From a virus (Duplodnaviria > Caudoviricetes): a stretch of 29,571 nucleotides of DNA. The notes under the pieces were generated by a model. That model saw nothing but the letters and a program-made list of their open reading frames with translations, did not search any database and was not told the origin of the DNA. The position numbers were made by a program, and so were the translations under genes. The DNA lies in IMG/VR virus record IMGVR_UViG_3300044733_002667, positions 1-29,571 of that record. The stretch is one strand, 5' to 3'. Of the stretch, positions 1 through 19,329 are shown one piece after another (positions within the stretch are counted from its first letter, which is position 1; each line of letters begins with the position of its first letter).

Positions 1-10
1 ATAGGTTGCC
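1..10 (-). promoter_or_regulatory. Reverse-strand variant (GGCAACCTAT) of the late-gene motif, back-to-back with the + strand copy
   Basis: ATAGGTTGCC|GGCAAGCTAG forms a near-palindrome at 2-19. Confidence 0.4.
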
Positions 11-20
11 GGCAAGCTAG
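11..20 (+). promoter_or_regulatory. GGCAAnCTAG motif copy 1 (putative late promoter)
   Basis: GGCAAGCTAG-GCC-ATG immediately before the tape measure start codon. Confidence 0.65.
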
Positions 21-23
21 GCC

Positions 24-2165
24 ATGGCAGACTCCCTCGGCGAGGTCGTACTAGGCATCAAGGTCGACCAGGCCGGTGCCCAGCAGGCCCTGCAGCAGTT
101 CAGCAATCAGGCCAAGACTGCGGCCAATACGGCCGGCAATGCATTAGAGGGCCTCGACCAACGGCTAGGGCTCACCACGACGCTAGTGAGCAGTCTTGCC
201 GGGGCATTCGGCACGCTCGCCGTCGGTGAGTTTCTGCGGCAGTCAGTACAGGCCGCGATTGATCTAGAGAGCATTACCCGCAAGCTCAGCAACAGCCTCG
301 GTGAACAGGGCGCGGCTGGTGCGTTGAGCTTTGCCCGTGGCCTCGCCGATGAGCTGGGTCTATCCTTCAAGACCCTGGCCAGTACCTTCTCAAGCTTCAC
401 GGCTGCCGCTACTCAAGCTAATGTCCCGCTGGCTCAGCAGCAGGAGCTATTCGCGGCGGTCGCGCGATCCGCCCAGCAGCTGGGCCTCAGCAATGACGAG
501 CTGTCCGGGTCGCTGCTGGCCCTGCAGCAGGTCGCATCGAAAGGCACCGTCCAGATGGAGGAGTTGCGCGGGCAGCTCGGGGAGCGGTTGCCGGTGGCAT
601 TCGCGGCAACTGCCAAGGGCCTCGGGCTGACTCAGCAGGAACTGATCAAGCTGGTTGAATCCGGCAAGCTCACCGCCGCTCAGTTCTTCCCGGCACTGAC
701 CAAGGGTCTTAACGAAATCAGCTCCGGCCCCAATGGCGCTCCCACGACGGCGCAAGAGCTTGGCAAGCTGACGAATGCCATCGATGAACTGAAGACCGAA
801 CTAGGGCAAGGGTTGGTCCCAGCGATCAAACCTGCTATCGATGGCCTCAAAGGGCTGATCACACTGCTGCGGGCATACCGTGAACTGCGGCTGGATCAGC
901 AGTCCCTAGGTGCCGCCGCAATCCCCCTGACACCGCTTGGACCGGGTGCAATCAAGGGCTTTGATGCCTTGATTCAGCGGCTCGGAGTGGCCAAGCTTGC
1001 TACCGACGGCCTCGGAGCCGCCAGCAAGTCGCTACGCCCCCTCCTGGATTCACTCGGCCAGTCCAAGGCCGTTGAGAATACCGGGCAGGCGCTGGATGAC
1101 AGCAAGGGCCGGGCCAACGCTGCCGCAGCAGCATTCGCGGCATCGGCTGCTGCAGCAAAGGCCAGCCTGAACAGTGTTGACAATCTGGCGGCCAAGCTCA
1201 AAGGCCAACGGGCCGAGCTGAATGCCGTTGAAATTGGCTCCGTGCGATTCCAGGAGCTGACGGGTCAGATCCGCACCACCGAAGAGGCCCTGCAGGCTGC
1301 CACCGATGCCGCAAAGGGCACCTCTGCTGCCGTCGCCGAAATCCGGCCCGATACCTTCAACGTCGACACCCAGTCCGCTGCCCTCAAGCTCAACCAGGCA
1401 CGCCTCGACCTGACGGGTCAGATCGCACAGGCCGAAACCGACCTGGCCAATGCCAAGCTCCGCACCGAAGAGGCGCTGCTCAACGCCCAGGAGAAGCGGG
1501 CTCTAGAAGGCGTCACCAATGACCGCACCCGGGCGGCCATCGCGGAAGAGTTCCAGCTCAAGCGCGACGAGCTCGAGCGCCGGAGCTTTGAGCTGAAGGC
1601 TCGGGCATTGGCTGCCGAGAATGCCGCGCAGGTCAAGGCCCTGGAGCTTGAATCCAAGCTGACGGAGCTTGCCGCCCGTCGTGGTGTCATCGCTGCTCAA
1701 GCGCAGCTGTCCCAGGCACAGGCGAAAGGCAATCAAGGTGAAGTGCAGGCCGCTCAGCAGGCCCTATCGCTCGCCCAGCAGGAATACGCCATCGCCCGCG
1801 AGATCAGCGCCGAGAAGATCGCCGGCACCAAGCAGCTATTCGAGCTTCGCCGGCAGCAGCTCGAGCAGGAGCGCCGGGCCGCCGCCGCCGATGACCTGGC
1901 ATTGCCGCAGGTGCAGCAGCAGTCCGGCTTCCGTTCCCTCCTGGATTCCATCCAGATCGACCCGGCACCAATCCAGGAGAACAGCAAAGCATCCTTGACT
2001 GCTGCCGAAAACATCAGCAACAGCAATACCGCCCTAGTCGATCGGATCGGCAACCTTGAACAGTCCATCGGCGGCCTCGTCGAGAAGGATTGGACTGTTC
2101 AGGTCAACGTCACCAACGAAGCCGGTGGGGCTGCCACCGTGAACACCGTCAATAGCCTCCAATGA
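24..2165 (+). CDS. Tail tape measure protein
   Basis: 713 aa, Ala/Leu/Gln-rich and helical. Contains the tape-measure N-terminal signature 'ALQQVASKGTVQMEELRGQLGERLPVAF...LIKLVESGKL' and a long coiled-coil C-terminal half. Confidence 0.93.
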   Translation: MADSLGEVVLGIKVDQAGAQQALQQFSNQAKTAANTAGNALEGLDQRLGLTTTLVSSLAGAFGTLAVGEFLRQSVQAAIDLESITRKLSNSLGEQGAAGALSFARGLADELGLSFKTLASTFSSFTAAATQANVPLAQQQELFAAVARSAQQLGLSNDELSGSLLALQQVASKGTVQMEELRGQLGERLPVAFAATAKGLGLTQQELIKLVESGKLTAAQFFPALTKGLNEISSGPNGAPTTAQELGKLTNAIDELKTELGQGLVPAIKPAIDGLKGLITLLRAYRELRLDQQSLGAAAIPLTPLGPGAIKGFDALIQRLGVAKLATDGLGAASKSLRPLLDSLGQSKAVENTGQALDDSKGRANAAAAAFAASAAAAKASLNSVDNLAAKLKGQRAELNAVEIGSVRFQELTGQIRTTEEALQAATDAAKGTSAAVAEIRPDTFNVDTQSAALKLNQARLDLTGQIAQAETDLANAKLRTEEALLNAQEKRALEGVTNDRTRAAIAEEFQLKRDELERRSFELKARALAAENAAQVKALELESKLTELAARRGVIAAQAQLSQAQAKGNQGEVQAAQQALSLAQQEYAIAREISAEKIAGTKQLFELRRQQLEQERRAAAADDLALPQVQQQSGFRSLLDSIQIDPAPIQENSKASLTAAENISNSNTALVDRIGNLEQSIGGLVEKDWTVQVNVTNEAGGAATVNTVNSLQ

Positions 2166-2908
2166 CCGTCACCATCGGCGCTTTCTCCTGCACCCATCTC
2201 ACCGCTCAGCCGTTCGGCTACGAAGGTGATGCACGGCAAGGCCTTACCTCGCGCTTCTGGTCCATCTCTGGCCTCCTCACAAAGACCCAGTGGACCGCCC
2301 TCCTTAGCGTCTACGACACCTGGCGTGATGCACGAATCCAGGATCAGGACACCGCCCTATCGGGCGCCATCGGCACCACCGTCAGCCTCACCGCTGATGG
2401 CTTCGGCCAGTCGTGGTCATCGGTCGCATGCTGGTTCGTGTCAGCCCCTGCCGGTGAGCAGCTCGGCGCCTATGTCCAGGCATCCTTTACCCTCGTTGAT
2501 GCCACCCAGGCTCTGGCGGTGCTGCTACGGGAGCAGGAGAAGGGCCGGCAATCGGAGGAGGCCAGCAGGCCCGCCTACGGCACCCTCACGCTCGGCAGCT
2601 GCACCCTGACGCTGATCGAAGAACCCGTCGGCTATCAGGACGCACCGAACCTGCAGCTCACCGCTGGCGGTCGTCACTATGTCCAAGGCCCACTGGCCGC
2701 GACCAAGCTGCGGAAGGTCGTCGGCACCACCACCTCGGCCGGCTGGTCGGCCCTGCAGACGTGGTACGAAGCCATTGTGCAGACGACCCCAGCAGCCGGC
2801 ACCTACTGGCCCATCAGCCCGCCTGAGGCCACAGGAGAGGTCATCATCGACGGTGGAGCCAAGGCCACCCGTTACACCGTGAACCTGACCCAAGCATTGG
2901 TCCGATGA
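2162..2908 (+). CDS. Tail protein, putative distal tail (Dit-like), internally duplicated
   Basis: ATGA-coupled directly after the tape measure gene. Two similar halves (TVTIG..QPFGYEGD..W.AL...Y..W / TLTLG..EPVGYQD..W.ALQ.WY). The Dit call comes from synteny only. Confidence 0.55.
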   Translation: MTVTIGAFSCTHLTAQPFGYEGDARQGLTSRFWSISGLLTKTQWTALLSVYDTWRDARIQDQDTALSGAIGTTVSLTADGFGQSWSSVACWFVSAPAGEQLGAYVQASFTLVDATQALAVLLREQEKGRQSEEASRPAYGTLTLGSCTLTLIEEPVGYQDAPNLQLTAGGRHYVQGPLAATKLRKVVGTTTSAGWSALQTWYEAIVQTTPAAGTYWPISPPEATGEVIIDGGAKATRYTVNLTQALVR

Positions 2909-4911
2909 CGATTGACATTCGCGCCAACGTCTTCTGCAACCTCGGCCCGATCATCGAAGGCAGCCTGTCAGATTCCTATGTGCAAGGCAACGGGCTGATC
3001 TACTGCCGCGGATCGGTCACGCTCGACGGCATCTACCAGCCAACCTTGGGGCAGGTGGTGGACTTTGCCTATCAGAAAAACGGCTGGCTCTCGCGCTTCC
3101 CCCGTCGCCTGCGGGTCCTGTCATCGTTCGCGGATCCCTTCACCCGCCAGACCCAGATCGAGCTGGGCTGCAAGCTGACCTACCTGAAGGACTACAAGAA
3201 GCGCGACTATCAGAAGGACACCAGCCGCAAGCTACCCACGATCGCGATCAGCGCTGCAGCGGACCCGACGAATCCCATCCGCGTTCAGGATCGCGGCTAC
3301 ATCCCGCAGAGCATCGCGGTTAACTATGTGATCAATACCTGCCTGACTGCACTTGGCATCACGGCTGCTGCAGCCCTCCCGTTTGCGGTGCGGTTCAACG
3401 GGTCGAAGTTCGAGGCCGACACCACCTACGTCGGCATGATCGACGAAATCCTGAAAAGTGCCGCTTACATCGGCTACCTCAACGAGTCCGAACAGCTGGT
3501 CCTGCGCAACCTGACCGATGACTCCGGCACCGGACCTGTCATCGGCCGTGATGAAGTCATCGCCATGGAACCCATCGCGGTCGGCGAATTGGGCGGCGAA
3601 ACCGTCGACGTGACGACGCCTAACTACACCTTCGCCCCAGGCTCGATCCAGGCCGGTGAGGACAGCATCGACGAGGGCAGCCCGCAGGATCCCCCAGGGC
3701 CCCCGGATACACCTGAGCCGCCGGACGATCCCAACCAGCCGCCAGACCTGCCACCGTCGCGGGTGTTGTGGACCTATGACGAGTCCATTGGTGGCCTCCA
3801 GCGGCTGGAGATCGTCTGGAACCCGGCGCCACCTGCTACGACGAAGGCCACCTATTTCTTGAACTACGTGCCATTCGTCTACACCACAACCGAGTACGAC
3901 GAAAACAACCGAGTCGCTAAGCGCACCACCACCGAACGCACTTATGCACCCGTGGCAAACGGATCCTACTTTAAGGAGGCGCTTGAGTTCTACAACGGTT
4001 CCGTTTCTGGCTCTTATCCGTTACTGATGCAGACCATCGAGCGGTACGAGTACGACAACAATGGCACCCTGATTCGGCAGGTGCAGGAACGCTACGAACC
4101 GGAAGTCGTCAGCATTGGCAAATCAGCCATCCGCTACACCTACGACGTCAGCGGCGGCCAGACGATCTACAACCCACGCCTAACGCCTGCCTATCTAGCC
4201 GAGCGCACGACCACGGACTATGCCAAGTGGGAAGCCACGACGGACGATGGGCTGGTCATCAAGTACAGCAAGACCAAACGGACCGTCGAGAAGTTGCCAT
4301 TGCACACCCAGGAGGGCCAGCAGGCCATCGCCAGACAGGCCGAGGATGCCAGTGCTTACTCTGAGGTGGTCGCCTTGGCCACAGCCATGCTGCGCGGGCT
4401 GGCGATTGATTCGGTCGAGCTGCAGAACAGCCAGGAGGTCAGCACCGCCGAAGCCAAACAGATCGCACCACCAGACCAGGCGCGACCCGACCCGGATCAA
4501 CTGCTGGCCGAGAAGTTCCGCACTCAAGACACCGTCAAGGCAAAGGTGAAGATCCAAGCCGGGCAGGAAACTGACAAGCGCGAGGTGGGCTACAGCTTGC
4601 CTTATGCCTTCGCCGATTACTACGTCTACGATCCGATCCTGGCCAAATACACTCCCGTCGGTGAGACCATCAATGGGCAGGTGCTGCGGTTCGCCAGGAT
4701 CCAGAATCGTCTCCGGCTCGCCAATCGTGCCGGCCTGTCGCTGCAGCTGGAACCCGAGCTGGTGCCGGTCCGGCCCTTTGATCCGCTCTACATCAACCTT
4801 GACGGCATCGTGGGCCAGTACCGCGTCAATGGCACCTCCTGGGCCTTCTCCGCCGATGGCATCGCGGCACAGGTTGATGCCATGTTCTGGGGAGGCGTCG
4901 GCACCGTATGA
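2905..4911 (+). CDS. Large tail-tip / baseplate hub-like protein
   Basis: 668 aa, second gene after the tape measure gene. Pro-rich linker (PQDPPGPPDTPEPPDD) and Tyr/Thr-rich beta segments. Function inferred from synteny. Confidence 0.55.
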   Translation: MTIDIRANVFCNLGPIIEGSLSDSYVQGNGLIYCRGSVTLDGIYQPTLGQVVDFAYQKNGWLSRFPRRLRVLSSFADPFTRQTQIELGCKLTYLKDYKKRDYQKDTSRKLPTIAISAAADPTNPIRVQDRGYIPQSIAVNYVINTCLTALGITAAAALPFAVRFNGSKFEADTTYVGMIDEILKSAAYIGYLNESEQLVLRNLTDDSGTGPVIGRDEVIAMEPIAVGELGGETVDVTTPNYTFAPGSIQAGEDSIDEGSPQDPPGPPDTPEPPDDPNQPPDLPPSRVLWTYDESIGGLQRLEIVWNPAPPATTKATYFLNYVPFVYTTTEYDENNRVAKRTTTERTYAPVANGSYFKEALEFYNGSVSGSYPLLMQTIERYEYDNNGTLIRQVQERYEPEVVSIGKSAIRYTYDVSGGQTIYNPRLTPAYLAERTTTDYAKWEATTDDGLVIKYSKTKRTVEKLPLHTQEGQQAIARQAEDASAYSEVVALATAMLRGLAIDSVELQNSQEVSTAEAKQIAPPDQARPDPDQLLAEKFRTQDTVKAKVKIQAGQETDKREVGYSLPYAFADYYVYDPILAKYTPVGETINGQVLRFARIQNRLRLANRAGLSLQLEPELVPVRPFDPLYINLDGIVGQYRVNGTSWAFSADGIAAQVDAMFWGGVGTV

Positions 4912-5657
4912 CCGCTGTATCGCTCGAAACCCGCACCGCTCTCCTGGCCTCCGCGCCAGCAGCAGCGGCGATCTGGTTCCCGACACCGCCAGGTGTCACG
5001 ACGCTCGGGGCGGCACCTGCGATCTCGACCAACCCGACACCGCAGCCGCCCAATGCCGTCGCGGTCCCCGCTGGGTTCGATCCGGCCAACCTGCAGGCCC
5101 TATTCGGCACGATCCTGCCGTATGCCGTCGCGCCGGTCTGGCCCAAGGTGATGACCGCGGCCCGGGTGCTGGCGCCGTTCAATGAGGAAATCCCCGCCGA
5201 TGCTGCGACCACCACGGCCCTTGTGGTTGGGGAGCTCCCCTATGCGCTGATCCTGCCGGGTGATGCCGCGGCGCTGCAGACCCTGACCAAGCTCGACGCC
5301 GTCACGCTGCTACTGGTTGGCCTTGAGAGCGTGGCCCTGTCGACCCTGACGGGCCTCGACGCGCAGACGTGGCTACAGATCGGCATCGAGACCGTCAGCC
5401 TTGGCACCACGACCCAGCTGGGCATTGAACTGAAGTCTGGCGGTCTGCTCGACACACTGACGGCCCTTGACGTGGTGGTGCCACCGCCGACCGTGATCAC
5501 GGTCCTCACTGGCCTCCAGGTCGTGCCATCGACGGAAGTCCTACTCGAGGTGGAGACCAGCAGTGGGGCCAGCGATGAGACCTACTTCAATTCGTGGAGC
5601 TGGCAGCACTACGAATGGGACGCCGAGGCCGTGTGGCCTGAAGGCTGGGCAAACTAG
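4908..5657 (+). CDS. Putative virion structural protein with T-x-T-x-L repeats
   Basis: ATGA-coupled; 249 aa, Thr/Leu/Val-rich with recurring TLTxLD-like units. Confidence 0.6.
   Translation: MTAVSLETRTALLASAPAAAAIWFPTPPGVTTLGAAPAISTNPTPQPPNAVAVPAGFDPANLQALFGTILPYAVAPVWPKVMTAARVLAPFNEEIPADAATTTALVVGELPYALILPGDAAALQTLTKLDAVTLLLVGLESVALSTLTGLDAQTWLQIGIETVSLGTTTQLGIELKSGGLLDTLTALDVVVPPPTVITVLTGLQVVPSTEVLLEVETSSGASDETYFNSWSWQHYEWDAEAVWPEGWAN
5648..5657 (+). promoter_or_regulatory. GGCAAnCTAG motif copy 2
   Basis: GGCAAACTAG; its TAG is the upstream stop codon; next ATG 17 nt later. Confidence 0.6.
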
Positions 5658-5674
5658 CGCGATGGCATGACCTG

Positions 5675-6031
5675 ATGGCTGCTCCAAACCTACGGGTCCC
5701 GCTAACGGTCACCGGCAAGCTGGCCTTGGCTCAGGCCTCCACCACCTTGGCATCGGTGCTGGCCAATGGATCCAGCAGCGGCAAGGTGCTCAAGGTCACG
5801 ACGATCCGGGCGTGCAACATTACCGCGTCATCCTCCAGCATCTCAATCACCGTCTATCGGGCCTCGACCCATCGGTATCTGATCAAGGCGGCGCCGGTCG
5901 ATGCTGGCCTGTCGCTGATCGTCACCAGCCGGGAGGATTACATCTACCTGGAGGAGGGTGATGCGCTCTATGCCCAGTCGTCGGGTGCGTCAGCGTTTGA
6001 TGTGTCCGTTGCTTATGAGGAGGTGAGCTGA
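5675..6031 (+). CDS. Small beta-rich tail-associated protein
   Basis: 118 aa, resembles small beta-sandwich tail/fibre adaptor proteins ('IYLEEGDAL...VSVAYEEVS'). TGATG-coupled to the next gene. Confidence 0.65.
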   Translation: MAAPNLRVPLTVTGKLALAQASTTLASVLANGSSSGKVLKVTTIRACNITASSSSISITVYRASTHRYLIKAAPVDAGLSLIVTSREDYIYLEEGDALYAQSSGASAFDVSVAYEEVS

Positions 6032-6921
6032 TGGCTGTCGTAACCACCACGTTCAGCAGTGCGGCAGGCGATGTGTGGGCATCCCCGACCTGGGTGAGCA
6101 CCGACCCCAGCTGGAAGCTTGACGTTCAGCTGACCAACTGGGTGACGGCGATCAATGACGCCAGCAAAATCAGTATCATCCACGATCCGGGCGATGCAAC
6201 CGCTCGTGGCACCAGTGATGAGGTGCGCTGGCTGCTGCGGTGCCGTGAGTCCGACACGTCAAGCGATTATGGGATCAGGTTTTGCAATATGCAGGCTGGT
6301 GGTGCCAACACGAGCTCCCAGGGAATCTATTACGGCAGAACAGCGGGCAGCGCCAATAACGGCGCCGGCGCAGCTACTTTCGCCAACATTGGTGGCTCTG
6401 GAGCTGTCGCGGGATCGCTAACCAGTTATGCCGTTGACTATAGGACCGCCTACGACGCTGAAGGCGCGACCCCATGGTTCGCTTTTATGAGTCGATTTGT
6501 TCAGAGTGGCAGCAATCTCGGAGCGATTAACTTCTTGTGCAGGCTGTCAACGGCAAACATGGCCGCCGGCAGCTATTACCCATCGACAGGACTTGGAAAG
6601 TGGCTTTACGCTTCGCAGGCTGGTAACTACTTGTCCTCAAACAGCATCCCACAGTTCTTAACGCCTCAGCGAAACACAAGCGCTCCTTACATTGGCTTGC
6701 AGTCAAGCATTGCGCTTCGTGCACCGCAGCCAGCCGTAACTTATGGCAATGGCTACTTCTTTAAGCTCGGCGCCCAGTATGGCGACACTCACTTTCTAGG
6801 TGAGCCAACATACGACATGCTGGTTTCCAATGGTGCGACAGGCGACTGGAGCGACACGGTGATCCTTGAAGGTAAGACCTACGCCCGCTCTGTTGGGTGC
6901 CTCTGGGTGAGGATCGCCTGA
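6031..6921 (+). CDS. Putative tail fibre / receptor-binding protein
   Basis: 296 aa, Gly/Ser/Thr/aromatic-rich. The central and C-terminal part is visibly lower in GC than the flanks. Confidence 0.5.
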   Translation: MAVVTTTFSSAAGDVWASPTWVSTDPSWKLDVQLTNWVTAINDASKISIIHDPGDATARGTSDEVRWLLRCRESDTSSDYGIRFCNMQAGGANTSSQGIYYGRTAGSANNGAGAATFANIGGSGAVAGSLTSYAVDYRTAYDAEGATPWFAFMSRFVQSGSNLGAINFLCRLSTANMAAGSYYPSTGLGKWLYASQAGNYLSSNSIPQFLTPQRNTSAPYIGLQSSIALRAPQPAVTYGNGYFFKLGAQYGDTHFLGEPTYDMLVSNGATGDWSDTVILEGKTYARSVGCLWVRIA

Positions 6922-7097
6922 TGGCCGTCATCACCCCCAACGGTTACGCCTACCACTTCCTCGGCGGCGTCTCCCTCTGGCCTCCGGCTGAATATCCCCT
7001 GCAGTCGCTCACCTTCCTTGATGCACGGCCTGATCCGCCGCCCTATCCCGTCCGTCCACCCTGGCGGCGGGCGATCCGCACCATCTCGGCAACCTAG
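6921..7097 (+). CDS. Small Pro-rich hypothetical protein (58 aa)
   Basis: Start revised to ATG 6921 (TGATG overlap); MAVITPNGYAYHF...; ends in the TAG of a motif copy. Confidence 0.65.
   Translation: MAVITPNGYAYHFLGGVSLWPPAEYPLQSLTFLDARPDPPPYPVRPPWRRAIRTISAT
7088..7097 (+). promoter_or_regulatory. GGCAAnCTAG motif copy 3
   Basis: GGCAACCTAG; next ATG at 7115, 17 nt later. Confidence 0.6.
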
Positions 7098-7114
7098 ACC
7101 AAACCGGTGAAACC

Positions 7115-7522
7115 ATGGCAATCACGACCACCATCAGCACGAGAGAACTGCTCCGCCAATCGGCGGCGGTCTTTGATGGCAAGGCCTACCGGGTCTATCT
7201 CGCCACAAACAATGGCAGCCTTACTGCTGAATCCACGCACAGCGCCTGGAGTGCTGTTGAGGTTGGTGGTGGTACTGGTTACGCTGCTGTTACCGGCACC
7301 CTCGGAGCTGGTGTTTACCAGGCAGGGACTGGTCGGGTCGAAGTCCCAGCCATCACTGCCACCTTCACCGCGACCGGGGCTGGGTTCTCCTATGACACGG
7401 TGGTGATCAGGATTGCCACCGAAACCTACGTGCATTCCATCATCGTGGAATCCCCGTCGATCACGCTTGCCGCTGGTCAATCCAAGACCTATACCCTCAC
7501 CTTCAGCCAGAACGACGCCTGA
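7115..7522 (+). CDS. Putative tail structural protein
   Basis: 135 aa, Thr/Gly-rich beta protein within the tail operon. Confidence 0.65.
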   Translation: MAITTTISTRELLRQSAAVFDGKAYRVYLATNNGSLTAESTHSAWSAVEVGGGTGYAAVTGTLGAGVYQAGTGRVEVPAITATFTATGAGFSYDTVVIRIATETYVHSIIVESPSITLAAGQSKTYTLTFSQNDA

Positions 7523-7524
7523 TC

Positions 7525-9165
7525 GTGGCCACGATCATTCACGTCATCCTGAAAGGGTCGGCCCTGCTCAATCGCCTGCTCAGCCAACAGGCATCCAACC
7601 GCAAGGCCCTCACCGAACAGGAACGGCAGAAGCGCGAACAGGCGGTCGTCGAGCAGAAGCGCCGCCAGGCCATTGCTAAGGCGGCCCCGCCATCCTTCAC
7701 CCGTAGGGTCGAGGAGCCCGCCGCGACACCAACAGGTGCACCGACGGTTCTGCTGATCTCCTGCACCTTCATCGACCTGCCCGAGTGGTCCTATCCCGGT
7801 GGAGTCGCAAGGGCTCCGGATGCGACCGCACAACTCAACGCAGCTCAGGTCCCGGCCACAGGCAAGCTGCTGACCGTCACGGCGCCACCGTTCACGCTTG
7901 AGGACTGGCAAGACTTCGACGGTCGTGCACCACAGGCCGGTGGTGTCTACCAGCGCCTGTACCGGCCCTATACGGCCATCCACAACCGCGGCGTCTCATT
8001 CTCGTTCGGGCGGTCCTATGCCGTGCTGCCAAAGGCCCTCAGCCTCTCTGGCACCGACGTGGCAACCATGGCCGCGCCGCAGTTCGAGTCATTGCGGACT
8101 GACCCGACGGCGCAAGAGTTCCCGTTTATGGTCTACCCCTACGTCATTGGCCCCCGTGGATTCGCGGTCGGTTACGACGGGCCGAACATCATCCTGCAGG
8201 TTTACACCGAAGCCAGCGCCAGGGACAGTGACGACAAGCCCGGCTGTGCAATCCTCTACAGCGTCGGTGACCAGTTCCGGATCGTTCCGTTTCTGATCTA
8301 CAGCACCAGCCCATCGGCGCAGACAGCCAACACCTTCATGCGGTCATACTGGACCACGCCCGATACGCTCTACACCGTCGCCGCAGTGGATCGCACCGTC
8401 ACCGGCGAGGTGCGTTACACCATCAGCGGCGCCACGTGGCCGGCAGTCTCGATCAGTGGCCTGCGGTTCTACATGATCCGGTCCTATGCCACCTGGGACC
8501 AGGTCCCGCCGACTGAGGTGCGCTGGGCGTATGACGCTGCAGGTATCCCCGCCGTAGACCTGCCGCCTAACCCGCTCAACGACAAGACCTTTCGCCTATC
8601 GGCAAGCATCGACTATCAGAACCCGTACAAGAAAGACGCCTACATCGCCACCACCTATGAACACCCGCTCTACAGCATGGCGACGCCACGAATCCAGAAG
8701 GGGCCGACCGGGATTGCGGCAGTCTGGCCCACCCAACAAGCGCTGATCGATGGCCAGGCCAATGCCTACTCCTTCTATCGGCAGAAGTTCAGCGCCGCGA
8801 GTCGCAGCACAACATCATCCGAGGCCGGTGCGGCATCGTTCGATCAGATCCAGACCGGCAACGATGCCTGGGACAGCAGCATCCCGGCAGACTATGTGCC
8901 GACCTATCAGCTCCGGCGATTTGAGCCGCGTATTGTCTATGACCAATCGACCGACGTGATCACATTCAACTTCGCCAAAGATGGTGACGACAATGCCGAT
9001 AGCCCCTACTATCCCGTCCGGATTCCACGCGCACAACTTCGCCCCCTGCTGGATTCCACCCGCGGCAACTGGTTCTTTGGCTATAACCCGCCCTACAGCA
9101 CCTTCGAGAACCGCACACCACCAGGCCGCTACGCTCAACTGGAGGTGAGCATCATCAGCGCATGA
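7525..9165 (+). CDS. Putative virion protein with N-terminal coiled coil (QQxxNR) and large aromatic-rich beta domain
   Basis: 546 aa, GTG start; N-terminus LLNRLLSQQASNRKALTEQERQKREQ; Tyr/Pro/Thr-rich body. Confidence 0.65.
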   Translation: MATIIHVILKGSALLNRLLSQQASNRKALTEQERQKREQAVVEQKRRQAIAKAAPPSFTRRVEEPAATPTGAPTVLLISCTFIDLPEWSYPGGVARAPDATAQLNAAQVPATGKLLTVTAPPFTLEDWQDFDGRAPQAGGVYQRLYRPYTAIHNRGVSFSFGRSYAVLPKALSLSGTDVATMAAPQFESLRTDPTAQEFPFMVYPYVIGPRGFAVGYDGPNIILQVYTEASARDSDDKPGCAILYSVGDQFRIVPFLIYSTSPSAQTANTFMRSYWTTPDTLYTVAAVDRTVTGEVRYTISGATWPAVSISGLRFYMIRSYATWDQVPPTEVRWAYDAAGIPAVDLPPNPLNDKTFRLSASIDYQNPYKKDAYIATTYEHPLYSMATPRIQKGPTGIAAVWPTQQALIDGQANAYSFYRQKFSAASRSTTSSEAGAASFDQIQTGNDAWDSSIPADYVPTYQLRRFEPRIVYDQSTDVITFNFAKDGDDNADSPYYPVRIPRAQLRPLLDSTRGNWFFGYNPPYSTFENRTPPGRYAQLEVSIISA

Positions 9166-9269
9166 CCAGCCATCAACTGATCGCCAAACTCGCACGGCAA
9201 CAGGCCGCCAATCGCGCCTCACTCCTCCGTAACGAACAGACCGCCGCCACCCTCGCCGCTGCCAAGTGA
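9162..9269 (+). CDS. 35-aa mini-protein resembling the N-terminus of the upstream gene
   Basis: MTSHQLIAKLARQQAANRASLLRNEQTAATLAAAK*; ATGA overlap upstream and GTGA overlap downstream. Below the ORF-track cutoff. Confidence 0.6.
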   Translation: MTSHQLIAKLARQQAANRASLLRNEQTAATLAAAK

Positions 9270-9910
9270 CCCTCCACCTCAACTACACCACCCCACCCGC
9301 TGCCGCTGGTGCACCGCGCCTCATCGGCAACACCGCCTCTGGCATCATCGCGGTCCCGGTCCTCGGCGGCATCACCACCGATGAGGACACGGACTACACC
9401 CTCATCCAGGCCGACCAGCCCTCAACCTTTGAGGCTGCTGCCAAGCTGGCTGAGGCCTGGCACGTTGAGCACGGCATCACCCGCGCCGAGGGCTACGCCA
9501 TCATCCAAGCCCACCTCGCTGGCGTCGTGCAGGAACCTGCGGCCCTTGAGATCGCCCTGGCCCATGCGCAGCAGCTGGAGACCATCAAGCGCGATTGGCT
9601 CCGGGAGTTCCAGACCCAACGTCTCGCGGCAGTCCTGACCCTCCTGCGCCACCGTTGCGGACAGGCCGCTGCCACCCTCGATGATGTGCGCCGCCAGCCG
9701 CGGGTGCTCATCGATGGCCTCTATGCCCTCTGGCAGGACGAACAGGTCGTCAAGGCTGACCCGCCGGAACCCATGACGGAGGACGTGCTAAAAAAGCCGC
9801 CGGAGGATCCAGACGGGGCAAGCCAACCCGCACCTGGGCCTCCACCTTCTGGGAGCTCGCCCACCACTACCCCGGACAGTTCCACCGCCAAACGTTCGGC
9901 CAAGAGCTGA
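9266..9910 (+). CDS. Putative tail assembly chaperone (lambda gpG-like, zero-frame product)
   Basis: 214 aa. Carries an in-frame CTA-AAA-AAG slippery site followed by a low-complexity Pro/Ser tail. Confidence 0.65.
   Translation: MTLHLNYTTPPAAAGAPRLIGNTASGIIAVPVLGGITTDEDTDYTLIQADQPSTFEAAAKLAEAWHVEHGITRAEGYAIIQAHLAGVVQEPAALEIALAHAQQLETIKRDWLREFQTQRLAAVLTLLRHRCGQAAATLDDVRRQPRVLIDGLYALWQDEQVVKADPPEPMTEDVLKKPPEDPDGASQPAPGPPPSGSSPTTTPDSSTAKRSAKS
9790..9796 (+). other. Programmed -1 ribosomal frameshift slippery heptamer A_AAA_AAG
   Basis: Correctly phased in the 9266 ORF. The -1 frame is open from 9790 through 10443. Confidence 0.8.
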
Positions 9911-10443
9911 CCTGGATCGTCCGGGATGCCCTGCGGGCAATGCGAACCCAGCAGCGGGAAGCTGCGGCACGGGCAGAACGGCCCATTGCCCAGCTCACCG
10001 CCTTGTTGTTCAACATCAACCGCGGCAAGGATGCCAAGGTGCTGACCGAGCGCGACTGGTGGATCTATGGCACCCTCGACCCTGAGGTGTCCGGCGATTC
10101 GCTCAGCCCTGCCGTCGTCGCCGTCATGCTGGCCCTACGTGCTGAGCGCAAGCTGCCCGACCAGCTGCTGGCCGCCTGGCACCTCGCACAAGCCCAGGCC
10201 GACACCGCAGGCCGCCCACCCGACTGCCGGGCCTTGCGGTCCGACTGTGGGCGGTTCTGGGTGCTGGCGCCAACATGGGAGGGCGGCAACATCCGCGGCG
10301 GCCTCGTCGGTTGCCATGGCCTCAACGCTGGCACCATCACAGTCCGCGACCTAGACCGGCAGCTGCTGACCTGGACCGTCAAGATCCCGCAGCGAAGCCA
10401 TGGCGGCTGGATCGAGGCGGATCTACTCCTGGCGGGAACCTAG
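9790..10443 (+). CDS. C-terminal part of the frameshift fusion (gpGT-like, about 392 aa in total)
   Basis: The -1 frame reads KKAAGGSRRGKPTRTWASTFWELAHHYPGQFHRQTFGQELTWIVRDALRA and continues without a stop into the 9940-10443 ORF (MRTQQREAA...). Confidence 0.72.
   Translation, partial: KKAAGGSRRGKPTRTWASTFWELAHHYPGQFHRQTFGQELTWIVRDALRAMRTQQREAAARAERPIAQLTALLFNINRGKDAKVLTERDWWIYGTLDPEVSGDSLSPAVVAVMLALRAERKLPDQLLAAWHLAQAQADTAGRPPDCRALRSDCGRFWVLAPTWEGGNIRGGLVGCHGLNAGTITVRDLDRQLLTWTVKIPQRSHGGWIEADLLLAGT
10434..10443 (+). promoter_or_regulatory. GGCAAnCTAG motif copy 4 (variant)
   Basis: GGGAACCTAG-GCC-ATG before the 10447 ORF. Confidence 0.55.
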
Positions 10444-10446
10444 GCC

Positions 10447-10833
10447 ATGACCACAACCGTCCGACAGCTGCGCGATCGCGTCGAAGGCGTCCTACGGGAT
10501 GACCTGGGCCGCTACCGCCTCCAGAACGGCACCCTCACCCCTGCGATCGCCGTACGGGCTGAAGGGGAGGGCCGACCGTCGGGAACCACCGTCGAGGGCC
10601 TGGAGGTCGTCATCTACCGCGAACCGGTGCCCGAGGCAGTGCCGGGCTACCGCAACCAGCAGGCCCGTAAGGTCTGGCAGGTCTATCTGGTCGACTGGTC
10701 GGGTCGTACACCGCTCATGGTGCTAACCGATCGTCTGCTGCTCGAGTTCCCCGGCATGATCGTCACCAATCTCGGCGTCTCCGAAAACGTCGGCCCGTCC
10801 AATCAGGTCCTCTGTGAAGTCGAGGCAAGCTAG
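10447..10833 (+). CDS. Hypothetical protein, possible tail terminator/completion protein
   Basis: 128 aa alpha/beta pattern in the morphogenesis module. Function is a guess. Confidence 0.55.
   Translation: MTTTVRQLRDRVEGVLRDDLGRYRLQNGTLTPAIAVRAEGEGRPSGTTVEGLEVVIYREPVPEAVPGYRNQQARKVWQVYLVDWSGRTPLMVLTDRLLLEFPGMIVTNLGVSENVGPSNQVLCEVEAS
10824..10833 (+). promoter_or_regulatory. GGCAAnCTAG motif copy 5
   Basis: GGCAAGCTAGGCCATG, a 16-mer identical to positions 11-26. Confidence 0.65.
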
Positions 10834-10836
10834 GCC

Positions 10837-11208
10837 ATGCTCCCCACCTGGACCACCCTCGACATCCCGGTCAAGCGCCGCGGTGATACGGTCGTCGCCA
10901 TCACGATCAAGAACACAGCAGGCGCCACGGTGGACCTGTCAACCTATGCAGGCCGGATCTACTGCGCCGTGTGGAGCCTCAACCCAGACCGCAGCCGTAA
11001 CACCAAGCTCGGTGATGCCGTCATCACTGAAGTCAGCCTCGCGGTCGGGCGGTTCAACATCACTTTCCCCCGGGCGATTACTGCCGTCATCGACCTGGCC
11101 CGTGGTGCTGGTTATGACGTGAAGTTCGACGAGCCAAGCGGCGGCCTCGACATCTACCACCTTGACGGGCGACTGCTGCCCACTGAAGGTTTCACGGAGG
11201 TTCCCTAA
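10837..11208 (+). CDS. Ig-like / BppU-N-like tail adaptor protein
   Basis: 123 aa with 'RRGDT..ITIKN..G..VDLS.Y' and 'GYDV...Y.L.G', a pattern typical of small beta-sandwich baseplate adaptors. Confidence 0.55.
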   Translation: MLPTWTTLDIPVKRRGDTVVAITIKNTAGATVDLSTYAGRIYCAVWSLNPDRSRNTKLGDAVITEVSLAVGRFNITFPRAITAVIDLARGAGYDVKFDEPSGGLDIYHLDGRLLPTEGFTEVP

Positions 11209-11843
11209 TGGCTGATTACGTCGTTGAAGTCACGACCGGCGCCACTGACCTGGCAGTCGGCACCCGCACCACGACCACGATGGTCGTCACCAGCTCCAGT
11301 GGTGTCGACGTGACCCTGCCGCAGGCCACGACCACACAGGCCGGCCTGCTGAACGCTACGGGCAAGACCCGCCTCGACCAGCTCGATGCCGACGACTCAC
11401 CGACCTTCGCTGGCCTCACCGTCACCGGTATCGCAACCGTCGATGAGGTGCACGGTGAGCTCACCGGGTCGGTCTTTGTCCATGTCCGCAACGACGACAG
11501 CATCACCCTGGCCAAGGGCACTCCCGTCTACTGCGTCGGCAACGTCGGCAACACAGACCGCATGCTGGTCCGTCGTGCCAATGCCGCCAGCCTTGCCACC
11601 ATGCCCGCTGTTGGTCTCATCGGCGACAGCCTGCCCGCCGGTCAGGATGGCCACATCATCACCCACGGCAAGCTCAACGACGTGCCGACCAATACCTACA
11701 CCATCAATGCCACCCTCTACGTCGCTTCGGGTGGTGGCCTCACCGCAACGGCACCGGCCAATCGTCAACCCATGGGCGTCGTCGCTCGCGTCAACTCCAG
11801 CACCGGCATGATTCTCGTCATGGGTCCCGGCGCTGTCCTCTGA
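11208..11843 (+). CDS. Putative fibre/decoration structural protein
   Basis: 211 aa, Thr/Gly-rich; 'TLPQATTTQAGLL' and 'TLAKGTPVY...MPAVG...LYVASGGGLTATAP' are motifs seen in phage fibre proteins. Confidence 0.6.
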   Translation: MADYVVEVTTGATDLAVGTRTTTTMVVTSSSGVDVTLPQATTTQAGLLNATGKTRLDQLDADDSPTFAGLTVTGIATVDEVHGELTGSVFVHVRNDDSITLAKGTPVYCVGNVGNTDRMLVRRANAASLATMPAVGLIGDSLPAGQDGHIITHGKLNDVPTNTYTINATLYVASGGGLTATAPANRQPMGVVARVNSSTGMILVMGPGAVL

Positions 11844-11853
11844 GGCAAGCTAG
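11844..11853 (+). promoter_or_regulatory. GGCAAnCTAG motif copy 6
   Basis: GGCAAGCTAG, fully intergenic after the TGA at 11843, in front of the lysis genes. Confidence 0.65.
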
Positions 11854-11877
11854 CCCGAGGATGCAGCACCGAGACAA

Positions 11878-12135
11878 ATGACCGGCAATGACAATCGGAG
11901 GCCCCTCCTCGATTGGCGCGAGATCATCGCAACCTCCGCCTCATGGCTGGTCATCGGTGCCATCTGTGGTGTCGGTTGGCTCTCGTGGACCGTGCCGCGA
12001 CAACTGGATCGGATCCTGCACAATCAGCAGCAGCTAGTCGAAAAAACCGAAGACTTCGACAGCCGCATCACCAAGATCGAGGCCAGTGACAGGATTCAGG
12101 ACACCCGCCTGACCCGCATGGAATCCGTCCGCTGA
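11878..12135 (+). CDS. Membrane protein with C-terminal coiled coil (holin/lysis accessory candidate)
   Basis: One hydrophobic helix (IIATSASWLVIGAICGVGWLSW) followed by a heptad-like tail; lies upstream of the endolysin. Confidence 0.6.
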   Translation: MTGNDNRRPLLDWREIIATSASWLVIGAICGVGWLSWTVPRQLDRILHNQQQLVEKTEDFDSRITKIEASDRIQDTRLTRMESVR

Positions 12136-12335
12136 TGGCCCTGTTCCTGCGCCTCCTTTGCATCGTCTGGGGTACGGCCCTGGGTCTTGCCGTTGCACAG
12201 GTCAGCGTCTGCGAGATTCGCGCCGGCAGCCGGTCGCAGCAGTGCCAGCAGGAATGGCAACTCACGACTGCCACCGTCCTTGGTCTCGGCTCTCAACTGT
12301 TTTCCCTATTCCAACAACCGCCCCACCAGCTATGA
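12135..12335 (+). CDS. Small two-helix membrane protein (holin candidate)
   Basis: 66 aa, two hydrophobic stretches around a Cys-x10-Cys loop; coupled to the endolysin by ATGA. Confidence 0.55.
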   Translation: MALFLRLLCIVWGTALGLAVAQVSVCEIRAGSRSQQCQQEWQLTTATVLGLGSQLFSLFQQPPHQL

Positions 12336-13492
12336 CCGGCAAACTGATCGATGCTGCACGCTTCACCGGCAATCCACCCGAACCCCATCAGGCCGCGGCA
12401 TGGAACTGGCTTGATGAAGGGCTGACACCAGAGGCGCGGGAACGCTTCTTCGAGATGTTCCGTGCTGGCCCACCACCGAAGGCACCGGACAATCCTGCGG
12501 TCAAGCTGGCCTTGCCGTTGATTCAAGAGTTCGAGGGGTGCCGGCTGGAGGCCTACCCCGATCCTGAGACCGGCGGTGAGCCGTGGACCATCGGCTGGGG
12601 TGCCACCACCCACTTCGACGGGTCCAAGGTCAAGGCTGGCGACACCATCACCCAGGCGGTCGCGGACCAGATGCTCGACAGCCACGTCCGGGACGTGCTG
12701 GAGCCTCGGCTGAGCCGCTCGATCCCGACCTGGCGCAAGCTCTCAGCACGCCAGCAGGCGGCCATCCTGAGCTTCGCTTACAACGTCGGTGCCGGATTCT
12801 ATGGCGCCTCAGGCTTTGACTCCATCACCAAGGCCCTACGCGACGGCAACTGGCCCGCGGTGCCGGCTGTTCTGCGGCTCTACGTCAACCCTGGCGGCCC
12901 CTCAGAGGCTGGCCTGCGCCGTCGTCGTGATGCTGAGGCCAAGCTCTGGGGCGAGGCCGTACAGGCGGCGTCGGTGCGCCTGAAAGTGCCGTACTTCTCG
13001 CAGAACGACAATGCCTCCGGCACCGGCTACCGCGAGTGTTTCAGCTCATCGTGCGCCATGGTCGCCGCCTTTTACGGCAAGGTCACGTCCGATGACGCCT
13101 ACAACGTCATCCGGTCGAAGTTCGGTGATACCACCGACGCACAGGCCCAGCTGGCAGCCCTGCGGTCCCTTGGCCTCGAGGCCACCCTGCGGACCAACTG
13201 CGGCCCGGACCTGCTCGAAGCTGAACTGCGTGCCGGTCGGCCGGTGCCTGTCGGCTGGTTGCACCATGGCTCTGCCACGTCCCCATCCGGTGGTGGCCAT
13301 TGGACGGTCGCGATCGGCTTTGATGCCGATGCCTTCTACCACAACGACCCCAACGGTGAAGCCAACCTCGTCAGCGGCGGCTATGTCTCCAATGCCAATG
13401 GCGCCGGGATCCGCTACAGCCGCCGGAACTGGCTGCCTCGCTGGATGCCCGACGGCTCAGCTACCGGCTGGGCATTGCTGGTCCGGGCGTGA
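12332..13492 (+). CDS. Endolysin: GH24 phage lysozyme + C39-like cysteine peptidase
   Basis: Start revised to ATG 12332. Lysozyme motifs FEGCRLEAYPD..WTIGWGAT, SFAYNVG, GLRRRR. Peptidase motifs VPYFSQND..ECFSSSCAM, GGGHW, NDP. Confidence 0.9.
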   Translation: MTGKLIDAARFTGNPPEPHQAAAWNWLDEGLTPEARERFFEMFRAGPPPKAPDNPAVKLALPLIQEFEGCRLEAYPDPETGGEPWTIGWGATTHFDGSKVKAGDTITQAVADQMLDSHVRDVLEPRLSRSIPTWRKLSARQQAAILSFAYNVGAGFYGASGFDSITKALRDGNWPAVPAVLRLYVNPGGPSEAGLRRRRDAEAKLWGEAVQAASVRLKVPYFSQNDNASGTGYRECFSSSCAMVAAFYGKVTSDDAYNVIRSKFGDTTDAQAQLAALRSLGLEATLRTNCGPDLLEAELRAGRPVPVGWLHHGSATSPSGGGHWTVAIGFDADAFYHNDPNGEANLVSGGYVSNANGAGIRYSRRNWLPRWMPDGSATGWALLVRA

Positions 13493-13636
13493 CCGGGCCT
13501 GCAGCCAGACCATCACCTGCCATCGCTGGTGGTGCTGCCAGCACTGCCCGTCATAACAACCCAGCCACATCGGTCCATCATCAGTCTCAACCTGTTGCAA
13601 TGTCGGCAACCTAGGGCAACCTTCAGGCGTGCACAT
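13457..13636 (-). CDS. Small hypothetical protein (59 aa), not in the ORF track
   Basis: MCTPEGCPRLPTLQQVETDDGPMWLGCYDGQCWQHHQRWQVMVWLQARSRPDQQCPAGS*; fills the otherwise empty gap after the endolysin. The true start may be internal. Confidence 0.45.
   Translation of the reverse strand: MCTPEGCPRLPTLQQVETDDGPMWLGCYDGQCWQHHQRWQVMVWLQARSRPDQQCPAGS
13605..13614 (+). promoter_or_regulatory. GGCAAnCTAG motif copy 7, followed by a partial tandem copy GGCAACCT
   Basis: GGCAACCTAG-GGCAACCTTC upstream of the 13635 ORF. Confidence 0.6.
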
Positions 13637-13814
13637 GAAACCCCTTGTGTATCGTGTGGAAGATCAGTTCATCGCCGAAGGTCATAAGCGTTGCCTCCGA
13701 GAAATGCACGACCGCGGCGACTTCAACGGCGTCTTAGAATATGCCGTCCTGCTGGCTGATCAGGACGCTACGTCGCGCTCAAAGATTGCGTGGTTGATGC
13801 AAGAAGTCTTTTGA
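13635..13814 (+). CDS. Small hypothetical protein
   Basis: MKPLVYRVEDQF...IAWLMQEVF (alternative GTG at 13629); preceded by a motif copy; overlaps the end of the convergent sigma gene. Confidence 0.6.
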   Translation: MKPLVYRVEDQFIAEGHKRCLREMHDRGDFNGVLEYAVLLADQDATSRSKIAWLMQEVF

Positions 13815-14610
13815 GCTTTACAATCCCACCCCTGATTCGCCTTTCGGCCTTGAATTGCGTCACGTCATGCTCCCTGACATACTCTCGGATCGACATCGCA
13901 TCGTGATCAGTGCAGATTCCATAGGTTGCCCGTATCGCATGAGCCTCTTCTGGCTCCAACGCATCCAACGCATCATGCACCCTCCCGCATAGCTCCATGG
14001 CCTCGGCATAGTCCGACGGGTCAGCGTCGCCCTGCAGCACGCTCCCTAGGTCCAGGTCGTCGCTGTCGCCGATCACCTTGTCGAGGCTCACCGGCCCGAT
14101 GCTGGCGCTGATGTATCCCAGCACCTCGTCGTAGTCCAGTCCCAACGCATCGACAGCATCCCGTAGCGTCGGCTGCTGCTGGCTATTGCGGGCCATCCAT
14201 GTCGACACCTGCGACAGCAACCGCTGAGGTCTGGTCTTCAGCCTGATCGCACCGTCCTGATACATCAGCTCTCGATTGATCGCCTGCTGAATCCACCAGT
14301 AGGCATACGTCGAGAACTTATAGCCGCGCTCAGGATCCCAACCGCTGACGGCACGACTCAGGCCGAAGACACCAGCCTGGAACAGATCCTCAATCGTCAG
14401 CATCTGCGGCCGGCGACGATGAAAGATGGTGCTTGCAATCTTGGCAACCAGTCGCAAATTGCACAGCATCATCCGCTCGTGCGCACGCTTCGACCCCTTG
14501 GCAATCTTGCGGGCCAGTAGGATCTCCTCCTCTGCCGTCAGCAGCTTATAGCGCTTCACGGCATCCATGAAGGTCTGATAGCCGTGGGAAATGTGGACGG
14601 TGGTGGTCAT
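13768..14610 (-). CDS. Phage-encoded RNA polymerase sigma70-family factor (RpoD/RpoS-like), copy A
   Basis: Region 1.2 LLTAEEEILLARKI; region 2 NLRLVAKIA..EDLFQAG..WDPERGYKFSTYAYWWIQQAI; region 3.2 PVSLDK; diverged region 4. Confidence 0.93.
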   Translation of the reverse strand: MTTTVHISHGYQTFMDAVKRYKLLTAEEEILLARKIAKGSKRAHERMMLCNLRLVAKIASTIFHRRRPQMLTIEDLFQAGVFGLSRAVSGWDPERGYKFSTYAYWWIQQAINRELMYQDGAIRLKTRPQRLLSQVSTWMARNSQQQPTLRDAVDALGLDYDEVLGYISASIGPVSLDKVIGDSDDLDLGSVLQGDADPSDYAEAMELCGRVHDALDALEPEEAHAIRATYGICTDHDAMSIREYVREHDVTQFKAERRIRGGIVKLKRLLASTTQSLSAT

Positions 14611-15458
14611 TGGATGGCAGGGTCAACGTTGATCATTCGCTCCAGTTGAGATATAGCGCGGTCGTGGATCTGTTTCACTGCCTGTCGGCTCCGGTTGGTT
14701 TCGCGGGCGATGGCGGTCATCGGTTGCGGTTCTGTGTTGAACCCATAGACCCGCTCGATGATGTCGCGCTGTAGGTCCCTGAGCCGCAGGACATGCACCT
14801 GTACCAGTTCGGTGCCGATCTCATCAGCGACCAGATCCAGCGGCAACGGGCCACCATCAGCGATCGTCTCATGCAGGTTGAGGTCCGGGCAGTCGCGCAC
14901 CGGGCCGTCGAGTGATGCCAGGGGGCGGGTGACGGATAGTGCTGCCTCGATCAGTTCCGGCGGTGTCGTGCGGCCCTGCAATGCTGCCGCCATCGCATCC
15001 TCTGGACTCATGCCAGCACTGGTCAGGCTGCCGATCTTGGCCTTCATGGTGTGCAGGTTGGCCGGGATCCGGATCGGATCATCTGCCATCCAGATCTCAC
15101 GATCCACAGACTGCCGGATCCACAGGGTCGCGTAGGTCACGAACCGACAGCCGTGCTCCGGCTTGAACAGTTCCGCGGCACGTGTCAGTCCAATCGTGGC
15201 AGCCTGCAGCAGGTCCTCACGGTCGAGGGTCTTGCAGCACCGCAGATGGCGGCTGATGAACCGATAGGCAAAGCGCAGGTTATGAACGACCAGTTGATCC
15301 CTAGCGCGGATGCCACGACGCCAGGTGCGGCGATCGGCGGCGGTGGTGGGTTCTGTGTCGCGGATGGCCATCCAGGCCTGCACCTGCCGGCCTAGGGCGA
15401 TCTCCTGATCTCGATGCAGCAGCGGCACCCGCAGCGCCGCGGTGATGAGGTTGGCCAT
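14607..15458 (-). CDS. Phage-encoded sigma70-family factor (cyanobacterial group-2-like), copy B
   Basis: PLLHRDQEIALGRQVQAW..GIRARDQLVVHNLR..EDLLQAATIGLTRAAELFKPEHGCRFVTYATLWIRQSV; SLDGP; region 4 HTH MTAIARETNRSRQAVKQI. Confidence 0.92.
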   Translation of the reverse strand: MANLITAALRVPLLHRDQEIALGRQVQAWMAIRDTEPTTAADRRTWRRGIRARDQLVVHNLRFAYRFISRHLRCCKTLDREDLLQAATIGLTRAAELFKPEHGCRFVTYATLWIRQSVDREIWMADDPIRIPANLHTMKAKIGSLTSAGMSPEDAMAAALQGRTTPPELIEAALSVTRPLASLDGPVRDCPDLNLHETIADGGPLPLDLVADEIGTELVQVHVLRLRDLQRDIIERVYGFNTEPQPMTAIARETNRSRQAVKQIHDRAISQLERMINVDPAIQ

Positions 15459-18721: not shown

Positions 18722-18973
18722 CTCCAATGTGCGGTGGGTTCGGTCGGCAATGACACGGGCGTGGTCTGCGGCAAAAGCGCCGCCGCCGTAGCGGATGGGG
18801 AATGGGGTTTCGTTCTCGCAGTAGATGAACAGCTGCCGCCGTCCGCTGGTCGCCCGTTCGGCCTGTAGCCAGATCCCTTGCCGCAGTTCGCAGCAGGCAT
18901 CAGTGCTGAGGGCCAGGCTGTCGCCCGGCTGGGCGGTCTGGATGAAGTTGAGCACTCGGTTTCTCAGGCTCAT
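18716..18973 (-). CDS. Hypothetical protein
   Basis: 85 aa, TGATG-coupled to ssb. Confidence 0.65.
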   Translation of the reverse strand: MSLRNRVLNFIQTAQPGDSLALSTDACCELRQGIWLQAERATSGRRQLFIYCENETPFPIRYGGGAFAADHARVIADRTHRTLED

Positions 18974-19323: not shown

Positions 19324-19329
19324 TTGCTC

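Follow-up and report, generated by a model that had tools for sequence, protein, structure and literature searches.

The window analyzed here is a stretch of 29,571 nucleotides from a virus of the Caudoviricetes (IMG/VR record IMGVR_UViG_3300044733_002667), in which copies of a ten-letter word, GG(C/A)AA(C/G/A)(C/T)TA(G/A/T), stand in front of late genes. From the sequence comparisons given below, we put at roughly three in four the probability that this word, which heads the late gene units of a family of picocyanobacterial siphoviruses, is a one-box promoter (an extended -10 element with no -35 box) that is likely read by host core RNA polymerase together with a phage-encoded sigma factor, here called sig3. 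That the word acts as a late promoter is, taken by itself, almost certain.

The window is a fragment of a siphovirus-like phage, with tail and lysis genes on the + strand (24-13814), early and replication genes mostly on the - strand, and the terminase on the + strand; its TerL is 64-70% identical to those of the Synechococcus and Prochlorococcus phages S-H1, KBS-S-2A, and MED4-184. A complete, near-identical genome, G001 (42,622 bp with terminal repeats; 100% and 97% identity to the two parts of the window), contains the ~13 kb of the phage genome that lie outside the window. A 44-kb contig in a cyanobacterial genome bin (G035) holds a relative of the window phage, and the family of G035 comprises genomes of 1.6-3.9 Mb with the cyanobacterial rpoC1, from which we infer the host to be a picocyanobacterium.

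The Word and Its Placement

Seven copies of the word on the + strand had been noticed in an earlier reading of the window, and all seven were recovered at the same positions; GGCAAVCTAG is matched exactly by six of them, and the remaining one reads GGGAACCTAG. An eighth copy, on the opposite strand at the very edge of the window, had been overlooked.

1..10, - strand: word GGCAACCTAT, the eighth copy, abutting the copy at 11 and continuing as GGC-ATG in G001
11..20, + strand: word GGCAAGCTAG, followed after 3 nt by the tape-measure ATG at 24, where a leaderless start is predicted
5648..5657, + strand: word GGCAAACTAG, TAG serving as the upstream stop; 17 nt before the gene at 5675-6031
7088..7097, + strand: word GGCAACCTAG, TAG serving as the upstream stop; 17 nt before the gene at 7115-7522
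10434..10443, + strand: word GGGAACCTAG, TAG serving as the upstream stop; 3 nt before the ATG at 10447; predicted leaderless
10824..10833, + strand: word GGCAAGCTAG, TAG serving as the upstream stop; 3 nt before the ATG at 10837; predicted leaderless
11844..11853, + strand: word GGCAAGCTAG, intergenic; 24 nt before the gene at 11878, the first of a unit containing the endolysin
13605..13614, + strand: word GGCAACCTAG, intergenic; 14-20 nt before an ORF of 59-61 aa that converges on the sigma genes

The copy at 1-10 heads, in G001, an inverted late gene of 132 aa just beyond the window. Other details of the original prediction were borne out as well: the continuation GCC-ATG is seen at 11, 10434, and 10824, the TAG doubles as the upstream stop at 5657, 7097, 10443, and 10833, and the copy at 11844 is intergenic, as is that at 13605. 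An additional GGCAACCTAT at 13921-13930 (-), within a sigma gene, looks like a chance match. With up to one mismatch allowed, the window contains 13 matches versus 3.92 ± 2.07 in shuffled sequences, and none of 100 shuffles reached 13; a third-order Markov model predicts 0.08 exact copies, for a pattern that was picked after the fact. The shuffles, the copies in G001, and the counts of placement at gene starts led us to reject a chance origin of the word.

Beyond the window set, G001 has seven further copies of GGVAAVCTAG, six of which head genes, and its word-headed genes include those for the portal, the scaffold, and the major tail protein. The seventh sits 33 nt inside a gene (G001:C1:16463-16472, +), lacks the CA offset described below, and is unexplained or due to chance. 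By our own gene caller, which missed two more word-headed ORFs, the copies in G001 stand before 12 of 19 late genes that follow a gap, 0 of 15 coupled genes (one of these being a sigma gene binned as late by its position), and 0 of 29 non-late genes. The claim that early genes lack the word is thereby upheld. Host-type TGnTAnnnT elements, which early genes were said to have instead, occur before some of them (21762 and 15699, minus strand). The expectation that the word would also precede the capsid, portal, and major tail genes held for the latter two and failed for the capsid gene, although the scaffold gene ahead of it has the word.

A scan of viral contigs for GGCAAVCTAGGCCATG returned 58 stretches, most of which open homologous structural genes. 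To describe the sites we compiled a profile of 130 start-proximal copies from 19 records, reduced to 102 after removal of near-duplicates; it should be noted that the core letters of this profile were fixed by the search pattern and are no evidence by themselves. Each of the positions from -40 to -2 carries at most 0.09 bit, indicating that there is no -35 box. The distance from word to start codon falls into two classes, with 3 nt at 23 sites, 4-5 nt at 2, 6-12 nt at none, and 13-39 nt at 71 (the start was uncalled at the other 6 of the 102), and 51 of the 71 starts in the longer, leader class lie 17-22 nt after the word. Position 13 is a C at 70 and position 14 an A at 65 of the 102 sites, and within the leader class alone these numbers are 43/71 and 38/71. 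A pyrimidine-purine step at a fixed offset is the typical look of a transcription start; in the 3-nt class, the A at position 14 is the A of the ATG.

Transcription would accordingly begin 4 nt after the word, at position 14, mostly on an A following a C, giving leaderless messages that start on the A of the ATG in the 3-nt class and leaders of ~14-19 nt in the other, most of them without a Shine-Dalgarno sequence (a similar word is present in 17/71 leaders). Both kinds of mRNA probably arise from one promoter type whose last T lies at -6. The absence of -35 conservation together with the fixed spacing and initiator offset favors the earlier proposal of a noncanonical, -10-like late promoter, and the exact 3-nt spacing in 23/102 sites with the shared CA offset likewise favors leaderless mRNAs at the GCC-ATG copies. 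If the cyanobacterial J-box is taken as a model, the GG may be the extended -10 read by sigma region 3.0, and the A and T may be flipped bases. An artifact of stop codons, which the original prediction had already argued against, was rejected, as only 27 of the 102 dereplicated sites supply an upstream TAG or TAA stop.

Word orientation follows inverted genes. Divergent word pairs in the loci that we fetched are separated by gaps of 0-11 nt, none by 12-60 nt, leaving no private space for a -35 element, and in G001 two back-to-back copies without any gap occupy the whole 26-nt spacer between divergent genes. The region next to window position 1 (G001:C1:16035-16900) is a two-gene unit inverted between the major tail and tape-measure genes; its first gene is kept in G010, G021, G011, G012, G025, G026, G027, and G035:C45, usually with divergent back-to-back words.

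Distribution of the Word and Nature of sig3

The window itself encodes two sigma factors, and one of these had been proposed as the reader of the word.

13768..14610, - strand: group-2-like sigma factor, best family Sig70-cyanoRpoD; its distribution does not follow the word
14607..15458, - strand: second group-2-like sigma factor, with regions 2 and 4; its distribution does not follow the word either

The gene for sig3 lies outside the window and was found by Pfam search in G001 (C1:18386-17682, -), between the head-tail adaptor and major tail genes. It occupies the same place in all eight word-bearing records that cover this region, plus G035:C45, and is encoded in 244 viral stretches, the best 80 of which were retrieved. 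The group-2-like sigmas, sig3, and the word were searched over 53 records, and hit positions were classified in 25 records selected for length or completeness. In the 14 records with sig3 or its P-SS2 relative, gene starts account for 115 of 146 strict hits, versus 0 of 18 in the nine records without sig3, four of which have a group-2-like sigma and seven of which share the head module; the gene-start background for hits is 4-7%. Six of these sig3-less records share with the window phage the portal (48-52% identity), capsid (53-60%), and TerL (64-70%), and the seventh (G040) is similar; they are as close to it as, or closer than, the positive records G010 and G021, so that kinship of the head module is not the cause of the split. 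A search for the word alone, without de novo motif discovery, gave no start-proximal copies in KBS-S-2A, S-H1, MED4-184, S-CBS1, and S-CBS3. The word is also present at 43 of 50 distinct sig3 stop junctions. The distribution of the word thus tracks sig3 and not the window sigmas.

By several comparisons, sig3 is a sigma-like protein of the SigF type that has region 2 and lacks region 4. The best families of five members are SigB, SigF, and SigG, matched over the N-terminal 60-65% of the profiles only, and in a Pfam search 10 of 15 members had region 2 and none had region 4. Among sequences with solved structures, 8x6g_H (Staphylococcus aureus SigB; E 4e-8) came nearest, and the AlphaFold model is helical and confident over approximately residues 21-150, with low-confidence ends. 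Aligned to host SigF-type proteins, sig3 shares the G-E-x-x-H pattern of region 2.4 and ends shortly after region 3, before region 4; with regard to membership in group 3 (SigF/SigB), region 2 with the SigF-type 2.4 pattern is thus present and a region 4 helix-turn-helix was not found. In a quick tree, the sig3 proteins form a clade (support 100) adjoining (85) other region-4-less SigF-like proteins, including ORF003 of the Prochlorococcus siphovirus P-SS2. This SigF affinity fits the word, which resembles the SigF promoter box GGGTAAG (PMC2532724) and the SigJ J-box GGGaAtacT, whose -35 is weakly conserved (PMC6495340); here and below, statements on published systems refer to the accessible parts of the cited papers.

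Region-4-less SigF-like proteins were also seen in the host chromosomes checked, mostly in prophage-like elements and between terL and portal. Such elements in the host-family genomes L311, L312, L313, L316, L319, and L320 contain primase, exonuclease, RusA, TerL, sigma, and portal genes; several of the sigmas have a QLVL-type word near the N-terminus, and by eye GGCAA stands ~13 nt before some ATGs of these elements, with a cognate word not established.

A TAnnnT element lies 5-7 nt before the start of sig3 in 34 of 51 distinct upstream regions versus 7 of 535 other genes, suggesting that sig3 is likely served by a sigma70-type promoter of its own despite its position among late genes. The exact hexamer TACAAT was rejected as a conserved sig3 promoter, since this site is confined to G001; TAnnnT as a general pattern held up. 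As a separate observation, TAGACT is found in the window at 26488-26493 (+), upstream of a small acidic gene before terL, and the same hexamer precedes many sig3 genes. Near the N-terminus, 29 of 47 distinct sig3 sequences (51/80 loci) have the word QLx[LFM][FLW], versus 10 of 676 other genes; in G001 it reads QLQLL. The consensus for clamp binding is QL[SD]LF, which MuC uses for late transcription (PMC12867686).

These observations can be combined into a proposed sequence of events. A sigma70-type TAnnnT promoter, served by a host sigma or by the phage group-2-like sigmas (those of the window could serve an earlier class of genes that includes the sig3 promoter), would turn on sig3, which would then fire a dozen or more late promoters irrespective of strand. 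In most sig3 proteins, the predicted docking of the N-terminal QLxL[FL] word on the host beta-clamp may in turn couple late transcription to replication.

Alternative Readers and Contrary Observations

A number of observations weigh against a sig3-read promoter. The records compared are related, it was the word that led to G010 and G021, and the strict pattern was broadened once sig3-bearing genomes had been viewed; as sig3 also travels with one tail module, there are few independent events of co-occurrence. G016 and G023 (49% and 55% complete) have 4/4 sites at gene starts, and no sig3 was found in them. Conversely, G099:C9 has at ~70-81 kb a sig3 orthologue in a small-gene island of ~10 kb that contains neither late genes nor the word and may be a satellite or a remnant. 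G067 has just 5 sites at starts; the fragments G068-G070 have one or two copies each. When the word was compared with region 2.4 over 18 sig3 clusters, its position 3 shifted with one sig3 subclade, which amounts to a single event. In G001, none of the TerS, TerL, and capsid genes has a copy of its own. Regarding the protein, sig3 scores far below every curated sigma profile cut-off, its model retrieves sigma factors as the top Foldseek rows at E 0.02 or weaker, none reaching E 0.001, its region 2.2 deviates from the SigF pattern, the G001 protein carries an insertion of ~50 aa, and the link to the P-SS2 clade in the quick tree has an SH-aLRT support of only 85%. The G001 gene has TACAAT 22 nt and not 6 nt before its TTG, and 18 of the 47 N-termini, mostly of one subclade, are without the clamp word.

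Among other candidate readers, the two window sigmas share a genome with the word, and 6 of the 14 word-rich records carry a group-2-like sigma. The remaining eight have none (G010, G021, G060, G062, G063, G064, G066, and G035:C45), two of them being genomes with terminal repeats, and the complete relatives G010 and G021 have the word and no homologue of either protein, whereas four records with a group-2-like sigma (KBS-S-2A, S-CBS1, S-CBS3, and G036) have no strict site at a gene start. Both proteins moreover have their best profile matches among cyanobacterial RpoD-type sigmas, cluster with host group 1/2 sigmas in the quick tree, and retain the group 1/2 pattern in region 2.4. The distribution across records contradicts the original prediction on this point, and we rejected the window sigmas, which are extremely unlikely to read the word. 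A host group 3 sigma of the SigF/SigJ type, with sig3 as a helper, decoy, or passenger, is unlikely as well: the word is similar to the SigF -12 box and the J-box, full-length SigF-type sigmas are present in picocyanobacterial genomes, and G016 and G023 would be accommodated, but related phages without sig3 also lack the word, and at the position of the third G of the J-box a "C-free" A is found in only 15 and a G in 30 of the 102 phage sites. In 15 host-family genomes, GGCAASCTAGGSCA with up to one mismatch occurs 58 times versus 126 times in the reversed control (a comparison confounded by CTAG avoidance), and of the only two exact copies one lies on a phage contig. No clear J-box turned up near pilB in these genomes, where starts are poorly defined and the test is weak. 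Both of these checks, weak as they are, gave no sign of a host regulon with the word. A single exact chromosomal copy, GGCAACCTAG-GCC-ATG, precedes a 4-codon ORF at G081:C1:852989-853002 (-), with no phage marker match within 16 kb.

Alternatively, the word could bind a phage activator that works with host sigma70 in the manner of Mu C, sig3 or another late-module protein being this activator and not a sigma. The divergent region 2.2 of sig3 would suit such a role, and MuC-type activators also have clamp words and -10-only promoters (PMC12867686). We regard this as quite unlikely, given that the word itself takes the -10 position at a constant distance from the initiator, that no second box is conserved, and that sig3 retains the sequence and helices of sigma regions 2-3. 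It is very unlikely that the word acts on RNA, as a signal for processing or translation initiation in long late transcripts and not as a promoter. Its strand specificity and proximity to starts, the overlap with stop codons at 27/102 sites, and the scarcity of Shine-Dalgarno-like words in leaders (17/71) could be read in this way, but the spacing falls into two fixed classes that share an initiator offset, divergent copies fill an entire 26-nt spacer, and the word co-occurs with a sigma-like gene. A promoter read by sig3 remains the preferred interpretation.

Several further features of these genomes were recorded. The tape-measure gene (window 24-2165) encodes 713 aa versus 806 aa in G001, an N-terminal stretch having been exchanged between the near-identical genomes. 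The early region of the window encodes an RTX calcium-binding repeat protein (15761-16360, -). At 18973-20963 (-) and 21670-23076 (+) are a module of SSB, a Rad52-like annealing protein, and exonuclease VIII, and a helicase gene oriented against its neighbors. In G027 (4589-5449) and G029 (8635-9534), a group-2-like sigma gene lies between terL and portal, with the word directly after it. The late regions of G001, G010, G021, G012, and G027 encode small Lys/Arg-rich proteins with a MARNYKRD-like start, often paralogous and often word-headed. An ORF of 425 aa in G010 (33638-34915) and G021 (30121-31398) resembles, by eye, a serine recombinase, a likeness that suggests temperate members of the family.

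Comparison with Known Systems

The strategy of a phage sigma with one-box late promoters is itself already known. In a literature search, largely without subscription papers, neither this word nor this sigma family was found described, and no mention of phages was found in the accessible part of PMC11119718. The present data provide a concrete candidate pair of sigma and promoter for a cyanophage family that is common although uncultured. For gene expression in cyanobacteria, a sigma that lacks region 4, paired with a 10-bp promoter seldom found in host genomes, would make a compact and possibly orthogonal part.

Among the closest known systems is that of the cultured phage P-SS2, a cyanosiphovirus in which a group 2 sigma is likewise accompanied by a short sigma of group 3; the latter, ORF003, was described without a named promoter (PMC2784084). 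ORF003 differs from sig3 in belonging to a sister lineage (profile E 5e-16), in being encoded after terL, and in that no QLxLF word was noticed. A variant word, GGAAnnCT, has 33 of 76 loose hits at gene starts in P-SS2 versus 2 of 144 in the reversed control, and sig3-less records have 1-4 such hits each; 25 listed P-SS2 genes had been selected after viewing their upstream DNA and were excluded from this test. In NC_013021.1, GGAAnnCT(A/G) stands ~21-27 nt before many structural genes, and TAGACT precedes ORF003 and several other genes. The P-SS2 group 3 sigma, for which no target was settled in 2009, would thereby gain a candidate regulon, and the claim becomes testable in an existing phage-host system.

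The SigF and J-box promoters share with the word the GG-n-A...T register and an extended -10 that carries most of the information, and the corresponding proteins are the best profile matches of sig3. The host proteins, however, have region 4, SigF requires a -32 box, and the phage word has two Gs in place of the trio (the third being the G counted above in 30/102 sites), followed by C or A, and ends in TAG. Mu C is similar as a phage late-transcription factor with one or more N-terminal QL[SD]LF-like motifs; unlike sig3, it is an activator acting with sigma70, and clamp binding is proven for MuC and predicted for sig3 (PMC12867686). The phiEco32 protein gp36, another phage sigma, has a -10 consensus of its own at middle and late genes; it differs in a sigma4-like C-terminal domain contacting -35 DNA and in a helper, gp79 (PMC12276001).

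A functional parallel is the late system of T4, with gp55, gp33, and the gp45 clamp (PMC2988020), which also has many one-box late promoters on either strand, no -35 conservation, and a truncated phage sigma, the clamp epitope of gp55 corresponding to the predicted clamp word of sig3. In contrast to T4, the present phage is siphovirus-like and of ~43 kb, sig3 is SigF-like with regions 2-3 and not a gp55, and its clamp word, located at the N-terminus, belongs to the bacterial QL[SD]LF type; no homologue of gp55, gp33, or gp45 was found among the 50 window ORFs, the 13 kb outside being only partly scanned. The word and sig3 would therefore work like T4 late transcription without belonging to that system. 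Should the clamp hook work, clamp-coupled transcription as in T4 and Mu would extend to a sigma factor that uses the host clamp. We can thus suggest, tentatively and at somewhat less than even odds, that a widespread family of freshwater picocyanobacterial siphoviruses has independently reinvented the replication-coupled late switch of T4 with the clamp of its host, through a SigF-derived minimal sigma of regions 2-3 that lost region 4 and gained an N-terminal beta-clamp hook, and with a 10-bp promoter that allows gapless back-to-back pairs.

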